From the IMG/VR virus record IMGVR_UViG_3300045988_068817: a DNA stretch of 55,934 bases. One strand, 5' to 3'. Within the stretch, counting starts at the first letter, position 1. Every line of letters begins with the position of its first letter. Origin of the DNA: a virus. This document shows, one piece after another, positions 4,757-55,337 of the stretch. A program made the position numbers and the translations under genes. The notes below the pieces were generated by a model. It was not told where the DNA came from and ran no database searches. It saw only the letters and a program-made list of their open reading frames with translations.

Positions 4757-5014
4757 TTTGCATCTTCCTTTCTCTGAATCAATTATAACTCAGATATATG
4801 TGACTGTCAAGAGTAAAAAAATAAATGTTTACTGTCAATAGGGTCACTTTTCCCTCAACACTTTTTTGTGTTAGTTTACAGCTTGTATAATTATCGTATT
4901 ATCAAGTTTTACTATAAATTTCCGTCCCAATTCTAACACATTAAAGTGTCAAAACCGCTATCAAAAATGTACACTAAAACGTGTTTTAACGTACAAATTA
5001 TACAAATTGGGCTG

Positions 5015-5043
5015 TTGACAACTATATACCAAGCGTCTATAAT
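5015..5043 (+). promoter_or_regulatory. Sigma-70-type promoter (TTGACA, 17-nt spacer, TATAAT)
   Basis: Exact consensus hexamers at 5015-5020 and 5038-5043. Confidence 0.7.
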
Positions 5044-5255
5044 CTAAGACAGCAGAACACACGATGAATCAGCCAACAATGGCAGATTTATCCTTTGTGG
5101 CATAAAAAATAGGCCGTCAGCCCCACCGACCAAAGTAGTACTGACGACCTATTCCACCACAAAACAGAAGCTGCGCAACCAAGGGCGCAGTCTCGGTTTC
5201 TGTCAATTATTATAGCAGAAGCAGACCGCTTCTGCAATAGAAAGGAGCAAAAAAC

Positions 5256-11045: not shown

Positions 11046-11115
11046 GAGGGGGGAGTTAGGGGGATTATAGGGGGTAATAGGGGTTGTAGGGGAAAGAGGG
11101 GGAAGAAAGGGGGGA
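11046..11115 (+). repeat. Seven G4-G6 runs spaced about 10 bp apart (TAGGGG-type repeats)
   Basis: G-runs start at 11048, 11059, 11070, 11080, 11089, 11098 and 11109. Confidence 0.8.
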
Positions 11116-11362
11116 AGATTGGATGTTTTTGCGCTGCACCACCACATGGCACTGATAGTCGCAACCGTTTCATCTCACTCGCTCTGCTTTCGTCTTAATC
11201 TACCCTGCGATTAGACGATTCTTTCTCAAAATCAAACCTTGCCGTTTTCTCTCGATAAATAACAGAAGAAAAAAGCATGGAATAGTCGCAGAGGGTAGTT
11301 TTACTACCTGACACCATTCCATGCTTTCTGATACGTTTGTTGATTGGAGATTTTAGCGGAGA

Positions 11363-12997: not shown

Positions 12998-13596
12998 CGC
13001 AGAAAGTCTCCCTCGTCAGGTAATTCAGCCATTGTCTGCTGATAGCCACCGTTCCAGTCCTTCACGTTACGCATCCAGTTTCGTGCAGCAGCTTTCCAAT
13101 CTTTCATAGGCGACTTGCCGACCTTCCAGCCATTTGCCGTGAAGTGGTCAACAAACCGCTCTGCTTCCAGCTCCGTGTAGCCCTTTTCGGAAAAGTAGGC
13201 TTTTGCTTGCTCGATAGTCGGCGCAACGAATCGTTTTACCGGTTCTTTTTCTTTCTCACATTCTTTCTTTAATCCATATTCCTTTTCCTTATCCTTATCC
13301 ATAGGAAGGGAGGCTTTTCGACTGGCTTTTTCATTTTCAGAAAGGGGGCTTTTTGATTTTTGAAAAGGGGGGTTTTTCGGTCTGCCACCATTTTTGCCGT
13401 ATTCATGTAGTTTTCTGCTAGAATCCAGCGTTGGTTTTACCAAAATCCACATCGGTTTCATTGATTTTTTGAGCGGAAGTTCTACGCCATTGATGCCATA
13501 CTGGACGACTGCATAGACAAAATCCTTGCAATCTTTCTCACTTAATTCGCTTGCAGCGTCAAGATATGATGCAAAAAACTTAAAATCTTGTGCCAT
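12994..13596 (-). CDS. Replisome organizer / DnaD-like replication protein (N-terminal organizer-like domain)
   Basis: AAAGAGGA RBS. Starts MAQDFKFFASYLDAASELSEKDCKDFVYAVVQYG. Its stop overlaps the dnaB start by 4 nt. Confidence 0.55.
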   Translation of the reverse strand: MAQDFKFFASYLDAASELSEKDCKDFVYAVVQYGINGVELPLKKSMKPMWILVKPTLDSSRKLHEYGKNGGRPKNPPFQKSKSPLSENEKASRKASLPMDKDKEKEYGLKKECEKEKEPVKRFVAPTIEQAKAYFSEKGYTELEAERFVDHFTANGWKVGKSPMKDWKAAARNWMRNVKDWNGGYQQTMAELPDEGDFLR

Positions 13597-22209: not shown

Positions 22210-22279
22210 TTTTTCTTTCCTTTCTCGGCTTCATTAGGCTTCATTGTTCTTACTTTGGCTTAACTTGGTTGTACAAAAA

Positions 22280-28601: not shown

Positions 28602-28802
28602 AACGCAAAGCTATGTTTACCGTTGAATTTTATCGTGCTTGTCTTATCCAGCAAGGAATTTGATGCCGTTTTCCACAAAGAAAGAGAGGAAAGAAAAGTT
28701 TTTGTGGAAAATTCTACTACTTGCTATTAGTAGAAGATATTTTAATATCTTGTTTTAACTCTTGTTTTATATATAGTAAGAACGTGGACAAAAAATGGAC
28801 GA

Positions 28803-28940
28803 ACGAGGACGGAATGTGGACGAACGAGGACAAAATATTCCGCAAACGAGGACGGATTGTGGATGAACGAGGACAAAATATTCCGCAAACGAGGACGGAT
28901 TGTGGATGAACGAGGACGGAACGTGTTGACTTGTCCTCGT
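28803..28940 (+). repeat. Rep iterons: six direct ACGAGGAC-core repeats at 21-22 bp spacing plus one inverted copy in the rep promoter
   Basis: Cores at 28803, 28824, 28846, 28867, 28889 and 28910, with inverted GTCCTCGT at 28933-28940. A 43-45 bp unit is tandemly duplicated. Confidence 0.85.
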
Positions 28941-28954
28941 TACAGTGGTATAAT
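28926..28954 (+). promoter_or_regulatory. rep promoter (TTGACT, 17-nt spacer, TATAAT) with the inverted iteron in the spacer
   Basis: Hexamers at 28926-28931 and 28949-28954. Confidence 0.75.
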
Positions 28955-28989: not shown

Positions 28990-30081
28990 GTGTCAGACAT
29001 CAAAGGTGGTAATTTGATTGAGAAGAGCCGACCTCTTGTGTGGGCAAAGTTTAGAGACTACACGGCTGGCGAACTTCGTCTGTTGGAAGTATACCTATCA
29101 AGAATCAATCCTCGTGACCCTGAAACGTCAGCGGTCAGGTTCACGCTGAAAGAATACTGCGACTTCTTGGACATCAAAATCAACTCAAGGAATTTGAAAG
29201 CGCAGGTCAAACACTTTGTCAGCAACTCTGTGGAAGTTCCTAGAGGTGATAAAGCTGGTTCTTATGATATCTATCCCCTGTTTGACCAAGCATCTGTCGA
29301 GTTCGATTACAAGCTGGCGAATTTTTTTATCACGCTTAGCTGCAATCCGAAACTGCGTCCCGTTTTCTTTGACATCGCAGAAAAAGGATATGTTAGATAT
29401 CGTCTGCGGTACACGGCAAGTATGAAATCACAGTACAGCATCCTTTTATACTCAATCTTGCGTGACATGATAGGTCGAGGAATAAAAACGCCTGAAATCA
29501 CAGTTGAGAAGCTGAGAGAGCAGCTAGGGGCGAATGAACCAAGCTACAACGAATATCGGTATTTACGAAAGCGTGTGCTTGACGTAGCCGTAAAGGAAAT
29601 CAACGAACTGTCTGACTTGCAGGTCGATTATGAACGTGTCATTATTGGGCATAAGGTTGTGTCAGTGAAGTTTAACGTGCATCAGCATACGGAGCCGGTC
29701 ATAGACGCTGAATCGAGCGAGGTTAGTGGTTCGTCTTTAAAAGATGTTCCAGAAAGCCAAAGGCCTGTTAAAAAGGCTCGCAGGGGCGCATATGAGGATG
29801 TGGATTGGGCATCTATCGCACCAACGCTTACGGATAAGCAGTGCATCGAGATTGCAAAGTCTGTTGCGAAGCGTATCAAGGACAAATACCCCAATATAAA
29901 ACAGAACAAAAAGAAAGACGCTGTTGCGAACATTGTTGAGAATGCTTACAGAATAATTATTGTCGATGGCGAAGCAGAGAGAAAAGAGCCGTTAACGAAT
30001 CCGGGCGGCTACTTGTTTAAGACGATTGAAAAGACAGACCTTGATGATTATGCTACGTTTGACGATAGCTTCTTGAAGTAG
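28990..30081 (+). CDS. repB: RepB/Rep_3-family plasmid replication initiator (GTG start)
   Basis: NLIEKSRPLVWAKFRDYTAGELRLLEVYLSRINPRD is typical of Rep_3 N-termini. Iterons lie immediately upstream. Confidence 0.75.
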   Translation: MSDIKGGNLIEKSRPLVWAKFRDYTAGELRLLEVYLSRINPRDPETSAVRFTLKEYCDFLDIKINSRNLKAQVKHFVSNSVEVPRGDKAGSYDIYPLFDQASVEFDYKLANFFITLSCNPKLRPVFFDIAEKGYVRYRLRYTASMKSQYSILLYSILRDMIGRGIKTPEITVEKLREQLGANEPSYNEYRYLRKRVLDVAVKEINELSDLQVDYERVIIGHKVVSVKFNVHQHTEPVIDAESSEVSGSSLKDVPESQRPVKKARRGAYEDVDWASIAPTLTDKQCIEIAKSVAKRIKDKYPNIKQNKKKDAVANIVENAYRIIIVDGEAERKEPLTNPGGYLFKTIEKTDLDDYATFDDSFLK

Positions 30082-30355: not shown

Positions 30356-31126
30356 ATGGCAAAAATCATAGCTATCGCCAACCAGAAGGGTGGCACAGGC
30401 AAGACTACCACAAGCACTTGTCTGGCTGGTGCATTGCAGCTGCTTGGAAAGAAGGTCTTGTTGGTAGACTGCGATGCCCAGTGCAACGCAACGGACACCT
30501 ACGGCGCACAGACGGAGGATGTATGCACTCTGTTCGATGTGATGACCAAGCAAGGAACGGTCGAGGAAGGAATCCAGCACTGTGAAGCTGGTGACATTCT
30601 TCCGTCTGATAGCGCATTGAAGGACATCGATGAACAGATGGTTCGGGACATTGGCAAGAACTTCCGGCTACGAGAAGCCCTTGAAAGCGTGTCCTGGCAG
30701 TACGATTATATTGTGCTGGACACTCCCCCGCAGCTTGGCCTTGCGCTTGTGAACGCGCTGATCGCTGCCAACAGCATCATCGTTCCCATCACAGCAGACC
30801 GATACGCACTGGCTGGTTTGAGCCAGCTTTCGCAGACCATTGGCGATGTTCGCAGATACTTCAATCCGAAATTGAAGATTGAAGGTCTGCTTCTGAACCA
30901 GTACAAGAGCCGTGAGAATCTATCCAAAGAGGTCGTAGAGCAGCTCCCTGTAATTGCACAAAGCATGGGGACAACCCTGTTGAACGTGAAGATTAGACCG
31001 TCTATGGGCGTTCGTAAGGCTCAGGCAGAGCGGCACAGCCTGTTTAGCGGTGACACGGCAAAAAGTACCAGTGCAGAGGACTTCAAGGCATTAGCGCAGA
31101 AAATTGTAGAGGGGGATACAAAATGA
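30356..31126 (+). CDS. parA: ParA partition ATPase (small type Ib, no N-terminal HTH)
   Basis: GGAGGA RBS. Deviant Walker A KGGTGKTT. Also contains LLVDCDAQ and IVLDTPP. Confidence 0.9.
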   Translation: MAKIIAIANQKGGTGKTTTSTCLAGALQLLGKKVLLVDCDAQCNATDTYGAQTEDVCTLFDVMTKQGTVEEGIQHCEAGDILPSDSALKDIDEQMVRDIGKNFRLREALESVSWQYDYIVLDTPPQLGLALVNALIAANSIIVPITADRYALAGLSQLSQTIGDVRRYFNPKLKIEGLLLNQYKSRENLSKEVVEQLPVIAQSMGTTLLNVKIRPSMGVRKAQAERHSLFSGDTAKSTSAEDFKALAQKIVEGDTK

Positions 31127-31407
31127 GCAAGAAGATTGTAGATGTTGCTCCCTTGATGGAATATTATCGAAACAGGCTTCTTGAAGAAGGCGATAATCCT
31201 GCTTTAGAGGATGCGCTTAAAAGATTAAGAGAATTGAAAGACGATACAGATTCTTTGCGACCTGTCGGCCATTGGATAGAAAGTATTTGCTTAGACGATG
31301 CTTTTTGGGTATGTTCTAACTGTAAGTTCCCTAGTCAAGCATCTGCTGCACCGGAACTTTACCACTACTGTCCAAATTGCGGCGCACGGATGGAGGAAAC
31401 AGAATGA
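31123..31407 (+). CDS. Zinc-ribbon protein in the par operon, 94 aa
   Basis: C-terminal WVCSNC...YHYCPNCGARME, paralogous to the C-terminus of the 13929..14219 product. Confidence 0.6.
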   Translation: MSKKIVDVAPLMEYYRNRLLEEGDNPALEDALKRLRELKDDTDSLRPVGHWIESICLDDAFWVCSNCKFPSQASAAPELYHYCPNCGARMEETE

Positions 31408-31976
31408 AATCAACCAGCAAAAAATCCTCAGGTTTGCTTGGCGGATTTGATTTCCAGCCTATTTTTTCGGAACAGGTATTAAGCCGAAGTGAGCCAAAGG
31501 AAGAAGAAGTAAGCCAAGCAAAGCCGAGTAATGCCGAACGAGAGTTAATTAAGCCTAGTGAAGCCACAGACAGCCATGTACAGCCTAATGAAGCGCAGTT
31601 AAGCAGTATTAAGCCGAAGCAAGCTAAAGACAGCAAAACACAGCCGAGCAAAGCCATAGTAAGCGAAAGTAAGCCAAAGAAACTGAAACAGGCGAAAGAA
31701 GTTCAACGTCTTATCGAACAGGGCGATGTTCCCGGCGCACTATCCGAAGCTGGTCTGACAAAGAAAAAAATCCCGATGCCGGAATCGCATCAAGGCGTTG
31801 CAAGTGGCGATGGCAAGCGTTCAAAGCGCATTACCATCCTTATGAGCGAGGAAGAGCGCAAGTACATCAACCGTGAAGCCAGACGGCACGGAATGACGAT
31901 TGGACAGTTCGTTTACGCCCTAGCCGTTGCAGCGGCAGACGGGAAGATTGAGTTGGAGGATTTCTTGGAGGATTGA
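31404..31976 (+). CDS. RHH centromere-binding-like protein (ParG/ParR/omega analogue): repetitive N-terminal half and C-terminal ribbon-helix-helix
   Basis: GGAGGAA RBS. The C-terminal KRITILMSEEERKYINREARRHGMTIGQFVYALAV fits an RHH. Last gene of the parA operon. Confidence 0.6.
   Translation: MKSTSKKSSGLLGGFDFQPIFSEQVLSRSEPKEEEVSQAKPSNAERELIKPSEATDSHVQPNEAQLSSIKPKQAKDSKTQPSKAIVSESKPKKLKQAKEVQRLIEQGDVPGALSEAGLTKKKIPMPESHQGVASGDGKRSKRITILMSEEERKYINREARRHGMTIGQFVYALAVAAADGKIELEDFLED
31481..31680 (+). repeat. Twenty consecutive 10-bp units with consensus (A/C)AGCCnArnn, candidate centromere (parS-like) array inside the CDS
   Basis: Decamers at 31481, 31491, 31511, 31521, 31531, 31551 ... 31671 begin aagcc, gagcc, cagcc, atgcc or aagc. 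Only the units at 31501 and 31541 are degenerate. Confidence 0.8.
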
Positions 31977-32029: not shown

Positions 32030-32071
32030 TTGACTTTTGTACGGACATATAGTACAATGTTTGTACGGACA
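32030..32071 (+). promoter_or_regulatory. Promoter (TTGACT, 17-nt spacer, TACAAT) bracketed by two direct 12-bp repeats TTTGTACGGACA
   Basis: -35 at 32030-32035 and -10 at 32053-32058. Repeats at 32036-32047 and 32060-32071. Confidence 0.7.
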
Positions 32072-32088
32072 AAAAGTGAGGTGTTGGT

Positions 32089-32265
32089 ATGTGTCCGCGT
32101 TTGGGTCGCCCTACTGATAGCAAAAAGACTGAACGGTTTGAAGTTCGATTGACCCCAGAGGAAATGAAAGAAGTGCAGGAATGCGCTGAAAAAATGGGGA
32201 TAACGAAAACGGAAGTTGTTAAACGTGGGATTCAGCTTGTTGCTGAAAAGGCGAGTGAAGAATAA
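32089..32265 (+). CDS. Small RHH (CopG-like) protein, 58 aa
   Basis: ERFEVRLTPEEMKEVQECAEKMGITKTEVVKRGI matches a beta-alpha-alpha RHH pattern. Below the ORF-track cutoff. Confidence 0.55.
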   Translation: MCPRLGRPTDSKKTERFEVRLTPEEMKEVQECAEKMGITKTEVVKRGIQLVAEKASEE

Positions 32266-32393
32266 AAAAATAAGGCATTGACCGCTCCCTGCAAAAGAAT
32301 AGTCAACGCCTTATTCAACACCAGAGATTGCTCTCGGATAAATCCATTATATCATCCGAAGCGACCTCTTACAAGCCGTTTTCGGGTAAAACC

Positions 32394-33308
32394 ATGAACA
32401 TTCCAGCAACGAAAGAAGAAATTCTTGAAAACTTCAAGAAAAACAGCAATGGCCGTCCGCTCAATAAGGATGATTACGAGATTGCGGAAGCGTTATCTCG
32501 AATCACTTACAAGGCGTATGAAGCCGGAATGAAAGATGCTAAACAGTTGAATATGGAGGATATGATGGATAACAGAAACGCGCTTCAAATCTTTAAGAAC
32601 GAAGAGTTTGGCTCAATCAGAACGTTTGTGAAAAACGGAGAGTACTGGTTTGTCGGCAGGGATGTATGTAATGCGTTTCAGGACAAGAACCACAATAGAA
32701 GCATTGGACGGATTGATGATTGTGATAAGCGTTCCTTGAAAATAAAAGATTCTCTTGGACGTGAGCAAACTGTAACCGTTATAAACGAATCCGGGCTATA
32801 CGCTCTTCTCTTTGCAATGCAACCGCAACGAGCAAACAAAGATGGGGTGTCAAATGCGTACCCCATCGAGGTTCAAGAAAGAATTGAGAAGCTTCGCCGT
32901 TTTAAGAGATGGGTAACGCACGATGTTCTTCCTACGCTTCGCAAGACTGGTTCTTACAGTATGAACCCGCAGGAGAACAAGCCCGACACGCAGGACGATG
33001 CAATCTTGCAAGTGCTGATGAAGAACACGGAAGTCCTGCAAGCCATCGTTCAGCAGAACCAGCAGATTATGATTGCACTTACCAACCTGTCCGTCAACGA
33101 TGCAAAGCGCACGATGGAGATTCAGCCTTACACTTCCCATCAGGGGCAGAAGGGTGACGGAAAACGCAGCAAGCGAATCACAATCCTTATGAGCGACAGC
33201 GAGCGGACGTTTGTTACGAGAGAAGCCCGCAAGCACGGATTTACGGCAGGGGAGTACATCTATAACCTGTCCGTTGCAGCATCGAAAGACCAGATTGACT
33301 TAGGATGA
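32394..33308 (+). CDS. Bro-N domain protein fused to a C-terminal RHH module (start uncertain, 32328-32394)
   Basis: LQIFKNEEFGSIRTFVKNGEYWFVGRDVCNAF ... INESGLYALLF ... FKRWVTHDVLPTLRKTGSY is Bro-N-like. The C-terminal GDGKRSKRITILMSDSERTFVTREARKHGFTAGEYIY is paralogous to the C-terminus of 31404..31976. Confidence 0.7.
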   Translation: MNIPATKEEILENFKKNSNGRPLNKDDYEIAEALSRITYKAYEAGMKDAKQLNMEDMMDNRNALQIFKNEEFGSIRTFVKNGEYWFVGRDVCNAFQDKNHNRSIGRIDDCDKRSLKIKDSLGREQTVTVINESGLYALLFAMQPQRANKDGVSNAYPIEVQERIEKLRRFKRWVTHDVLPTLRKTGSYSMNPQENKPDTQDDAILQVLMKNTEVLQAIVQQNQQIMIALTNLSVNDAKRTMEIQPYTSHQGQKGDGKRSKRITILMSDSERTFVTREARKHGFTAGEYIYNLSVAASKDQIDLG

Positions 33309-35741: not shown

Positions 35742-36260
35742 TTATTCTCCTTTCTTTGCGGTGGCAGCGGGCTTAGAGAAGCTCTTCTGCCACTTTTCCA
35801 GTTCATCCAGCCGATGCACGAGGACATTGTACTGTTCAATAGGCACATATTGCTGTGTCGGTGCAGCGGTCTGCTGTACCTGTTGTGCTTGCATCTGCCG
35901 CCATGCTTCCGGGCAGTAAAACTCTAACACGTCAGATTCACAAGTGTTTGGATTCAGACGTTTGCAGTAGATGACCCCACTACGCAAATCCGGGCAATAC
36001 GTCCATCTTCCGTACATATCAGATGGAATTGCCAAAAATTCTTCCCTGCTGGAAACAGGTCTGCCAAGCAGCCAACCGCCGTCCTGTGCCGACTGATGAA
36101 CAGGCTGCTGCCCATTCATCGGCTGCGGAAGCTGCGGCTGTCCCTGCTGCATCTGCGTGTTTGGCAGGGAAGTGGTAAGGCCAACCGTGCCCATGCCACC
36201 GTAAGGATTGACAGGCTGCTGCGAAACGCATGGCGCTCCGGGTGTCTGGTAATAACTCAT
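35742..36260 (-). CDS. Q/P/G-rich low-complexity protein with a Cys-containing C-terminal domain, 172 aa
   Basis: AGGAGGGA RBS. Contains QQPVNPYGGMG, QMQQGQPQLPQPMNGQQP and YCPDLRSGVIYCKRLNPNTCESDVLEFYCPE. Confidence 0.65.
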   Translation of the reverse strand: MSYYQTPGAPCVSQQPVNPYGGMGTVGLTTSLPNTQMQQGQPQLPQPMNGQQPVHQSAQDGGWLLGRPVSSREEFLAIPSDMYGRWTYCPDLRSGVIYCKRLNPNTCESDVLEFYCPEAWRQMQAQQVQQTAAPTQQYVPIEQYNVLVHRLDELEKWQKSFSKPAATAKKGE

Positions 36261-36469
36261 AAAACATCCCTCCTATTGCATCCAGTGTACCGCATCAGCA
36301 AAAAGCGAAGGACAACGAAGATACAACGAAGGATAAAAAAAGAAAAGCGCCCACACGGAAAAATCCGCATGAGCGCTTAACTGTTAAGGGCTTCACATTG
36401 GAAGCAAAAATAAAATATCACGTTTTGACTTGCAAGACAAGAGTTTCGACAAAACTAGTGCGAATAAGA

Positions 36470-55259: not shown

Positions 55260-55337
55260 TGGTGCTGCATAATGGATTTGAACCAATGTATGTCCGGTTA
55301 TGAGCCGGATGCTCTAGCCTAACTGAGCTAATGCAAC
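55260..55337 (-). tRNA. tRNA-Met (anticodon CAT, CCA encoded). An elongator type, or possibly a lysidine-modified tRNA-Ile2.
   Basis: Cloverleaf folded by hand: acceptor GTTGCAT/ATGCAGC, D arm GCTC-AGTTAGGCTA-GAGC, anticodon arm TCCGG-CTCATAA-CCGGA, T arm ATTGG-TTCAAAT-CCATT. Confidence 0.85.

Follow-up and report, generated by a model that had tools for sequence, protein, structure and literature searches.

What is an array of 10-bp units doing inside a protein-coding gene? This question is raised by a stretch of viral DNA of 55,934 nucleotides (IMG/VR virus record IMGVR_UViG_3300045988_068817; hereafter the window, meaning the whole stretch that was analysed), which belongs to a tailed phage-plasmid from the gut. 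In its plasmid module, a gene at 31404..31976 (+ strand) encodes a 190-aa putative centromere-binding protein, likely to end in a ribbon-helix-helix (RHH) domain, and 200 bp of this gene consist of short units repeated in phase. From sequence comparisons, we consider it rather probable that the array is a series of putative binding sites for the RHH protein that this gene encodes. In that case, a type Ib-like partition system would carry its centromere and/or operator inside a gene.

The main array (31481..31680, + strand) codes for residues 27-92 and comprises 20 contiguous 10-bp units with the consensus AAGCC-R-AAGT. All 20 decamers listed in a previous sequence-only reading of the window were recovered on re-reading. 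Counted over the 20 units, position 1 is A15/C4/G1, position 2 A18, position 3 G19, position 4 C18, position 5 C13, position 7 A16 and position 8 A14/G6. The trinucleotide AGC stands in register in 17 of the 20 units and [ACG]AGCC in 12, and exact AAGCC is found in only 8. Hence, the sequence-only reading was right about the phased repeat but too strong in naming AAGCC as its motif; it also counted two degenerate units where there are three (31501 AAGAAGAAGT, 31531 ATGCCGAACG and 31541 AGAGTTAATT).

Autocorrelation and Fourier analysis, the check proposed at that time, confirmed the 10-bp period. At lags of 10 to 60 by tens, the autocorrelation of the main array is 0.59, 0.52, 0.53, 0.55, 0.59 and 0.58, versus 0.11-0.38 at other lags. 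Nothing extra is seen at lag 30 relative to lags 10 and 20, and the Fourier power at period 3 is just 0.7. The motif is read through in all three codon phases, as had been claimed, and units sharing a codon phase are no more similar (5.68 identities out of 10) than units in different phases (5.67). Across the 56 kb of the window, the period-10 signal is strongest at the main array, which includes 13 consecutive phased [ACG]AGC units; in simulation, a window is expected to contain 0.34 runs of at least three such units. Loci of generic ParA relatives, used as background for this periodicity, gave a score of 0.438 at the 99.9th percentile; the few background windows that scored higher were an N-run, an intergenic repeat of 7 bp and a stretch rich in A. 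Tandem Repeats Finder detected only 2 short pieces of the main array, because half of each unit varies freely. Finally, 200 bp at 10.0 bp per unit correspond to 19 turns of 10.5-bp B-DNA, which shifts the sites by roughly one complete turn from one end of the array to the other. The suggested placement of all motifs on one DNA face is therefore only approximate.

The main array encodes LSRSEPKEEEVSQAKPSNAERELIKPSEATDSHVQPNEAQLSSIKPKQAKDSKTQPSKAIVSESKPKK, a peptide in which K/Q-P recurs loosely every ten residues; the looser 10-aa peptide period described earlier is indeed all that is visible at the protein level. To score the DNA repeat independently of the peptide, the array peptide was recoded synonymously 20000 times, and the mean autocorrelation at lags 10, 20, 40 and 50 (non-multiples of 3) was calculated. 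With the codon usage of the window (mean 0.337), the observed score of 0.56 was reached by 0 of the 20000 recodings (z 7.5). It was likewise not reached when the codon usage of the RHH gene itself was applied (z 6.1) or when codons were permuted among positions carrying the same amino acid (z 4.3). A peptide-driven repeat is ruled out by this recoding and by the lack of extra similarity at lag 30. Serine codons follow the motif as well: they are AGC in 6 of 6 cases in the motif core and AGT in 5 of 6 elsewhere in the main array, and mostly TCN outside the array. In addition, the DNA constraint is overlaid by one that comes from coding. T occupies unit position 10 in 7 of the 13 units lying in codon phases 1 and 2 and in 0 of the 7 phase-0 units, where T followed by AA would create an in-frame TAA stop.

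Relatives of the locus lead in the same direction. We took 80 IMG/VR loci, from which 75 distinct RHH gene sequences were compared without gaps. In all 75, the frame of the gene runs across the array without a stop, one of the signs that the gene is real and is translated through its array. Unit position accounts for the diversity inside the array (eta2 0.238), codon position for little of it (eta2 0.028), and outside the array this is reversed (eta2 0.015 and 0.303, respectively). At third codon positions, nucleotide diversity (pi) is 0.060 in the array core versus 0.187 outside the array (p 1.6e-5), and 0.143 in the array spacer, which does not differ significantly from the 0.187 outside. 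On the other hand, diversity at first and second positions reaches 0.055 inside the array versus 0.022 outside, that is 2.5 times the value in the rest of the gene. The low third-position diversity of the core combined with the high diversity at first and second positions argues that the peptide is weakly constrained and the DNA core strongly so. Taken with the recoding, the comparison of relatives shows that the repeat lies in the DNA and is conserved as DNA.

An antisense open reading frame (ORF) of 108 aa (31331..31657, - strand) also crosses the main array and is stop-free over it in 74 of the 75 relatives. As a gene that could have shaped the repeat it was rejected: it has no Pfam match, and a protein constraint cannot yield conservation with a 10-bp period. 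The purine richness of the sense strand probably explains why this frame is open.

A second site of the same type occurs in the window, this time in non-coding DNA. Five phased units, CAACCAAGTT AAGCCAAAGT AAGAACAATG AAGCCTAATG AAGCCGAGAA, form a mini-array (22222..22271, - strand) located between the stop of a 119-aa ORF (22280) and the ATG (22209) of a gene for a Sak4-like ATPase. When a position weight matrix (PWM) built from the main array was run over the window, the mini-array was the best phased match outside the array, scoring 28.4 versus 13.3 for the next best. It is present at the Sak4-like gene in 61 of the 79 relatives scored, and the relatives with a different upstream gene are without it.

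How far does this arrangement extend beyond close relatives? An exhaustive profile search resolved the RHH protein family into 30 clusters at 50% identity. In its distant members, the N-terminal peptide and the RHH domain are kept and the linker peptides are unrelated. Comparison of these clades at the DNA level shows that at least four others carry an array of their own in the same linker, each with a second site made of its own unit. The linker array of clade L168 has ~13 10-bp units (GGTAGTCAGA/GATACCAGTG), and its second site, with 6-7 units and a 12-mer in common with the linker array (TGATACCAGTGG), fills the gap between the rep stop and the parA ATG. L163 combines ~18 GCAGAAT-type units of 9 bp in the linker with 4 units just after rep. 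In L171 and L174, the linker holds 14-20 10-bp ACAGCG units, and 5-6 phased units lie in the 5' coding part of another gene, a minus-strand 171/174-aa gene in which they occupy several codon phases (5320-5380 in L171, 5596-5650 in L174). The window contains a homologue of that gene (35745..36266, - strand), in which no AAGCC array was seen. In L173, five roughly helically spaced CACTTYR..GCAGAAT copies are found in the linker, and three contiguous 10-bp units upstream of parA. The second sites of array-bearing clades are usually just upstream of the par genes, and in 5 of the 5 clades tested (window, L168, L163, L171 and L174) the second site is the top PWM match outside the main array.

A peptide repeat kept in relatives that had lost the DNA phase had been put forward as the refutation test for a DNA-level array. 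The opposite is seen, the peptide being lost and a short-period DNA array kept. Selection on the DNA rather than on the peptide, as originally proposed, is thus borne out by the recoding, by the diversity of relatives and by the comparison of clades. The beta-strand of the RHH domain appears to track the array cores, if loosely: the strand is RITI(L/I)M where the core is AGCC/AGCG, RVSV where it is GCAGAAT, and RMAIAM where it is GTCAG/CCAG. The arrays also vary in length. Natural RHH proteins are 190, 180, 170, 160 or 150 aa long, with deletions at different places and one 173-aa exception; the lengths change in steps of 10 aa, or 3 units, because the frame must be preserved. A 150-aa variant was confirmed on DNA and keeps 8 array units.

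Two further repeats were noticed in the distant clades. At 4830-5218, L163 has a truncated window-type RHH gene (106 aa, without the N-terminal peptide) that follows 4-5 leftover AAGCC-type units; judged from its sequence, this remnant was left behind when one par module replaced another, with a breakpoint within or close to the array. The L172 element, which carries an integrase, has a 15-bp tandem repeat, GGAAGCGGAAAACCG, in about nine copies at 2500-2640, those in the centre being identical. The copies lie inside the gene of a 452-aa HTH_36 protein upstream of parA and could be in-gene iterons or a peptide repeat.

The candidate binder is the product of the array-bearing gene itself. This gene starts with a GGAGG Shine-Dalgarno sequence and an ATG overlapping the upstream stop (ATGA). 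As the sequence-only reading had it, it is the last gene of the parA operon, or more precisely of a rep-parA operon, and the C-terminus of its product is RHH-like, with a sub-threshold Pfam match. Homologues of the protein in metagenomes number 819, and nearly all those listed are 190 aa long. The N-terminal peptide MKSTSKKSSGLLGGFDFQPIF (31404..31466, + strand) is conserved in all clades, with M1, K2, S5, G10 and L11 invariant, and reads MKxTSKKxSGLLGG in alignments across clades. By analogy with the N-terminal peptides of ParB and ParZ (PMC9712426), we infer that it contacts ParA and stimulates its ATPase.

The predicted DNA-binding domain, residues ~138-180 (31815..31943, + strand), would consist of the beta-strand KRITILM followed by two helices. 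Pfam gave a NikA-like RHH match at residues 138-174 (E=1.7e-5, 25.3 bits, under the 27-bit cutoff). In an AlphaFold2 monomer, the extended KRITILM segment precedes helices 149-162 and 166-178, which have predicted local distance difference test (pLDDT) scores of 81-92. In the same model, residues 20-88, the array-encoded part, are disordered (pLDDT <50), and a helical hairpin spans residues 90-115. The top PDB matches in Foldseek are nearly all RHH proteins (CopG, KacA, TacA, CdbA, Arc, NikA, AmrZ), with template modelling scores of at most 0.78 and E>0.5. A sequence-profile search of the PDB yielded no RHH partition protein, its sole match being a capsid protein (E 3.9). The model and these matches make a C-terminal RHH domain likely. 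The ParG (TP228) and omega (pSM19035) families were not matched, and Pfam at E<=0.1 gave only NikA-like, TacA1 and DUF6290; the likeness of the RHH protein to ParG and omega is only one of fold and architecture.

The case for binding by the gene's own RHH protein is built on two things, the operator-like positions of the mini-arrays made of the same unit and the loose co-variation of the beta-strand with the array core; the identity of the binder, the centromere function and the feedback are all proposed on comparative grounds. Several observations weigh against this reading. The mini-array is absent in 18 of the 79 relatives scored, including 2 of the 10 matched to contigs with a window-type RHH gene. 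No array stands upstream of parA in the clade of the window, where the mini-array fronts a Sak4-like recombination gene instead. In L172, no array was seen in the RHH gene and no second site was identified. The co-variation of beta-strand and motif concerns five clades and was judged by eye. The second-site motif lies on the sense strand of the local transcription unit in 5 of 5 clades. The RHH call falls below the Pfam cutoff (25.3 versus 27 bits), with Foldseek E-values above 0.5. Finally, the diversity tests, which give strong support for a DNA constraint, short of proof, were made on close relatives (86-94% identity) and are not tree-aware.

Could the array be occupied by the RHH protein for regulation only? 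The bound array would then be an operator or transcription roadblock acting in autoregulation and on the Sak4 operon, with the true centromere elsewhere. We regard this as unlikely: no other candidate centromere repeat array was found near the par genes of the window, and 20 contiguous units far exceed what an operator needs, natural variants keeping at least 8. A purely regulatory role would fit the mini-arrays, which immediately precede start codons or ribosome-binding sites, and the main array, which lies within the operon and upstream of the RHH-coding part. It would also fit the general knowledge that type Ib centromere-binding proteins, ParG and omega among them, are repressors as well; in known type Ib systems, however, one kind of site makes up both the operator and the centromere arrays.

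A second possibility concerns the binder. A BRO-N/Ant-like protein encoded at 32328-33308 (+ strand; PHROG anti-repressor Ant, 1.7e-42) has an RHH tail at its end, GDGKRSKRITILMS, whose beta-strand is exactly the one seen in the partition RHH protein. The BRO-N protein of L168 likewise has an RHH tail, related to the L168 partition RHH protein. The BRO-N/Ant-like protein might compete for the AAGCC arrays. That it, a 58-aa RHH protein (32089-32265) or a host factor is the binder in place of the partition RHH protein nevertheless seems improbable, since the array goes with the partition RHH gene in every clade, also where the called genes include no BRO-N (L171, L173 and L174). In addition, the strand of the L168 BRO-N tail is TRISIPM versus TRMAIAM in the partition RHH protein.

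The strand bias of the motif raises the question of an mRNA role, in which a phased single-stranded RNA motif would serve an RNA-binding factor or affect translation, instead of being a DNA site. Three features agree with it: the motif is on the sense strand of the transcription unit in all main and second-site arrays, the mini-arrays abut ribosome-binding sites, and the array RNA is unusually unstructured, hence accessible (z +2.23; 200 of 200 shuffles fold at least as well). Such a role is improbable in view of the periods of 9-10 nt, which equal the DNA helical repeat and match the periods of known RHH centromeres, and of the product of the same gene, a predicted DNA-binding RHH protein. 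The array has no Rfam family match (a tRNA being the sole Rfam hit of the window) and no conserved structure. As to the strand itself, agreement in five clades would arise by chance about 1 time in 32, and direct duplication or a purine-rich coding bias could also cause it.

An array with no site function, that is a low-complexity linker that arose by slippage, its 10-bp sub-period being left over from the origin of the 30-bp (10-aa) repeat, would suit the disordered, tolerant peptide (pLDDT <50 over residues 20-88, first- and second-position diversity 2.5 times that of the rest) and the copy-number changes in 30-bp steps, but hardly deserves credence given that lag 30 is not in excess over 10 and 20, that same-phase units are no more alike, that conservation at synonymous positions is threefold higher in the core than elsewhere, and that a phased AAGCC-type array recurs at a non-coding locus and four other array-bearing clades behave alike with their own unit.

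Under the favoured reading, in which the array is bound by the RHH protein of its own gene, the 190-aa product would act as the ParA partner through an N-terminal ParA-contact peptide, a disordered linker, a short helical hairpin and the C-terminal RHH domain. RHH dimers would bind cooperatively, one per unit, and coat ~200 bp. The coated main array may form a shallow superhelical filament that presents N-terminal tails to nucleoid-bound ParA, this filament being the partition complex; a shallow superhelix is preferred to a strictly one-faced complex because the 10.0-bp period drifts by about one helical turn over 200 bp. Since the main array is inside the operon and upstream of the RHH-coding part, its occupation could throttle transcription of its own gene. 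The mini-array (22271..22222) would serve as an additional operator or partition site. With the sites embedded in the gene, specificity and target would lie within ~300 bp and move together when par modules are exchanged. More tentatively, and with less confidence than we place in RHH binding as such, the ~570-bp gene might be a self-contained specificity cassette. It would encode the RHH protein and hold a centromere of 8-20 sites with a 9- or 10-bp period in three frames, the array would double as an autoregulatory roadblock, the clades would have diversified into incompatibility types, and L163 would record an exchange.

How does this compare with known partition systems? To our knowledge, the type Ib arrays of pCXC100, TP228 and pSM19035 are intergenic, usually upstream of parA. 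In contrast, the main array described here is the coding sequence of a linker and is longer, with 20 units of 10-bp period in three codon phases. In these three systems, a small Walker ParA is followed by a small protein with a flexible N-terminus and a C-terminal RHH, an architecture that is predicted here as well. Their centromeres are unbroken series of short repeats with one RHH dimer on each, and the binding proposed for the main array follows this pattern. In the type II systems of pSK41 and R1, ParR is an RHH protein on tandem repeats spaced about one helical turn. Unlike here, the motor of pSK41 and R1 is the actin-like ParM, and parC is non-coding DNA that precedes parM; the partner NTPase of the RHH gene in the window is a Walker ParA, not the ParM of a type II ParMRC system. 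Canonical parS is a 16-bp palindrome, and ParB has a helix-turn-helix (HTH) fold.

The ParB of pCXC100 binds cooperatively to nine uninterrupted 9-nt repeats (PMC3074162), a period equal to that of the 9-bp array of the L163 clade. The same source cites a superhelical partition complex for pSK41 ParR (cited in PMC3074162). The omega protein of pSM19035 requires at least 4 contiguous heptads for ParA activation (PMC9499535), and the parH site of TP228 ParG is an array of tetramer boxes with spacers (PMC3130281).

Partition proteins that bind within their own gene have been described before. ParZ of Borrelia burgdorferi is presented as a non-ParB, possibly phage-derived protein that binds within its own coding region and controls ParA via a conserved N-terminal peptide (PMC9712426). 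It is compared here by this description, which is of a chromosomal system and, as far as it goes, defines no binding motif or repeat and mentions no RHH (PMC9712426). In Streptomyces SCP2, ParT has a single 18-bp inverted repeat in its own gene, recognised by this ParB-like protein, which accumulates on DNA, and this in-gene site was mutated synonymously for experiments (PMC12260392). Chromosomal parS sites inside parB (Spo0J) are also described, to judge by titles and term counts. ParT and ParB/Spo0J differ from the present case in having neither a tandem array for an RHH protein nor multi-frame dual coding. The initial statement that no described par system has this layout consequently does not hold as worded, in view of ParZ (PMC9712426) and ParT (PMC12260392), although neither is a tandem RHH array. 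Full-text literature, of incomplete coverage, contained no tandem RHH-type array within the coding sequence of the binding protein. An in-gene centromere is thus already known; what differs here is a tandem RHH-type array in linker-coding DNA.

If the favoured reading is true, the locus would offer a clear example from nature of dense dual coding, with a tandem protein-binding array and an ORF sharing 200 bp and the motif in all three codon phases, and it would illustrate how a constraint on the DNA can be accommodated by a disordered linker. It would also give a rationale for binding protein and centromere staying linked during module exchange among phage-plasmids, and hence for diversification of the incompatibility type. 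The matched pairs of protein and site represent at least 4-5 specificities with 9- and 10-bp periods and offer material for the recognition of tandem repeats by RHH proteins, and the array lengths of 8-20 units offer material for studying the effect on ParA activation. For annotation, the warning would be that centromeres of uncultured plasmids and phage-plasmids may hide in genes, in coding regions of apparent low complexity.

The element that carries the array is a tailed phage by its tape measure, major head and portal protein genes. Its plasmid module contains, in this order, iterons, a Rep3 initiator, a small ORF, ParA, a 94-aa zinc-ribbon ORF and the RHH gene. The iterons (28780-28920) are 21-22-bp units arranged as a 43-bp repeat (2.7 copies, 97% matches) directly upstream of the rep promoter-like site; considered as a source of the AAGCC unit, they proved unrelated in sequence. 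The Rep3-family initiator gene spans 28990-30081 (+ strand). Upstream of it, a consensus scan found a promoter-like site, TTGACT-17-TATAAT with TG (28926..28954, + strand), and no strong promoter match between rep and the RHH gene. The genes from rep through the RHH gene (rep-orf-parA-orf-RHH) are probably one operon, because the only strong promoter-like site precedes rep.

ParA (30356..31126, + strand; 256 aa, KGGTGKT) is a small deviant-Walker-A ATPase of type Ib-like kind, with Pfam matches to AAA_31 (6e-54), CbiA, ParA and MipZ, a match to PHROG 164 (ParA-like) and no HTH hit. Only the 94-aa zinc-ribbon ORF (31123..31407, + strand), whose start and stop codons overlap those of its neighbours, separates parA from the RHH gene; it is a variable insert that is different or absent in L081, L082, L171, L173, L174 and L255. 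The RHH gene directly adjoins parA in L171, L172, L173, L174 and L255. No relative was found in a plasmid collection searched by DNA and by protein, nor in isolate genomes and metagenome-assembled genomes searched with the RHH protein, and viral contigs searched for P0132, P0136 and P0135 yielded none. A ParA scan of genomes gave only generic ParA relatives at ~40% identity, with no host or cultured relative surfacing.

Downstream of the RHH gene, a promoter-like sequence TTGACT-17-TACAAT (32030-32088, + strand) is overlapped by two direct copies of TTTGTACGGACA. These copies stand upstream of the gene of the 58-aa RHH repressor (PHROG 876) mentioned above, and site and gene look like a separate operator/repressor pair. 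Elsewhere in the window, Tandem Repeats Finder reported G-rich 10-12-bp units at 11049-11118 and a 23-bp unit (x2.4) at 13324-13378. The phage also carries a tRNA-Met (CAT) gene at 55260-55337 (- strand).

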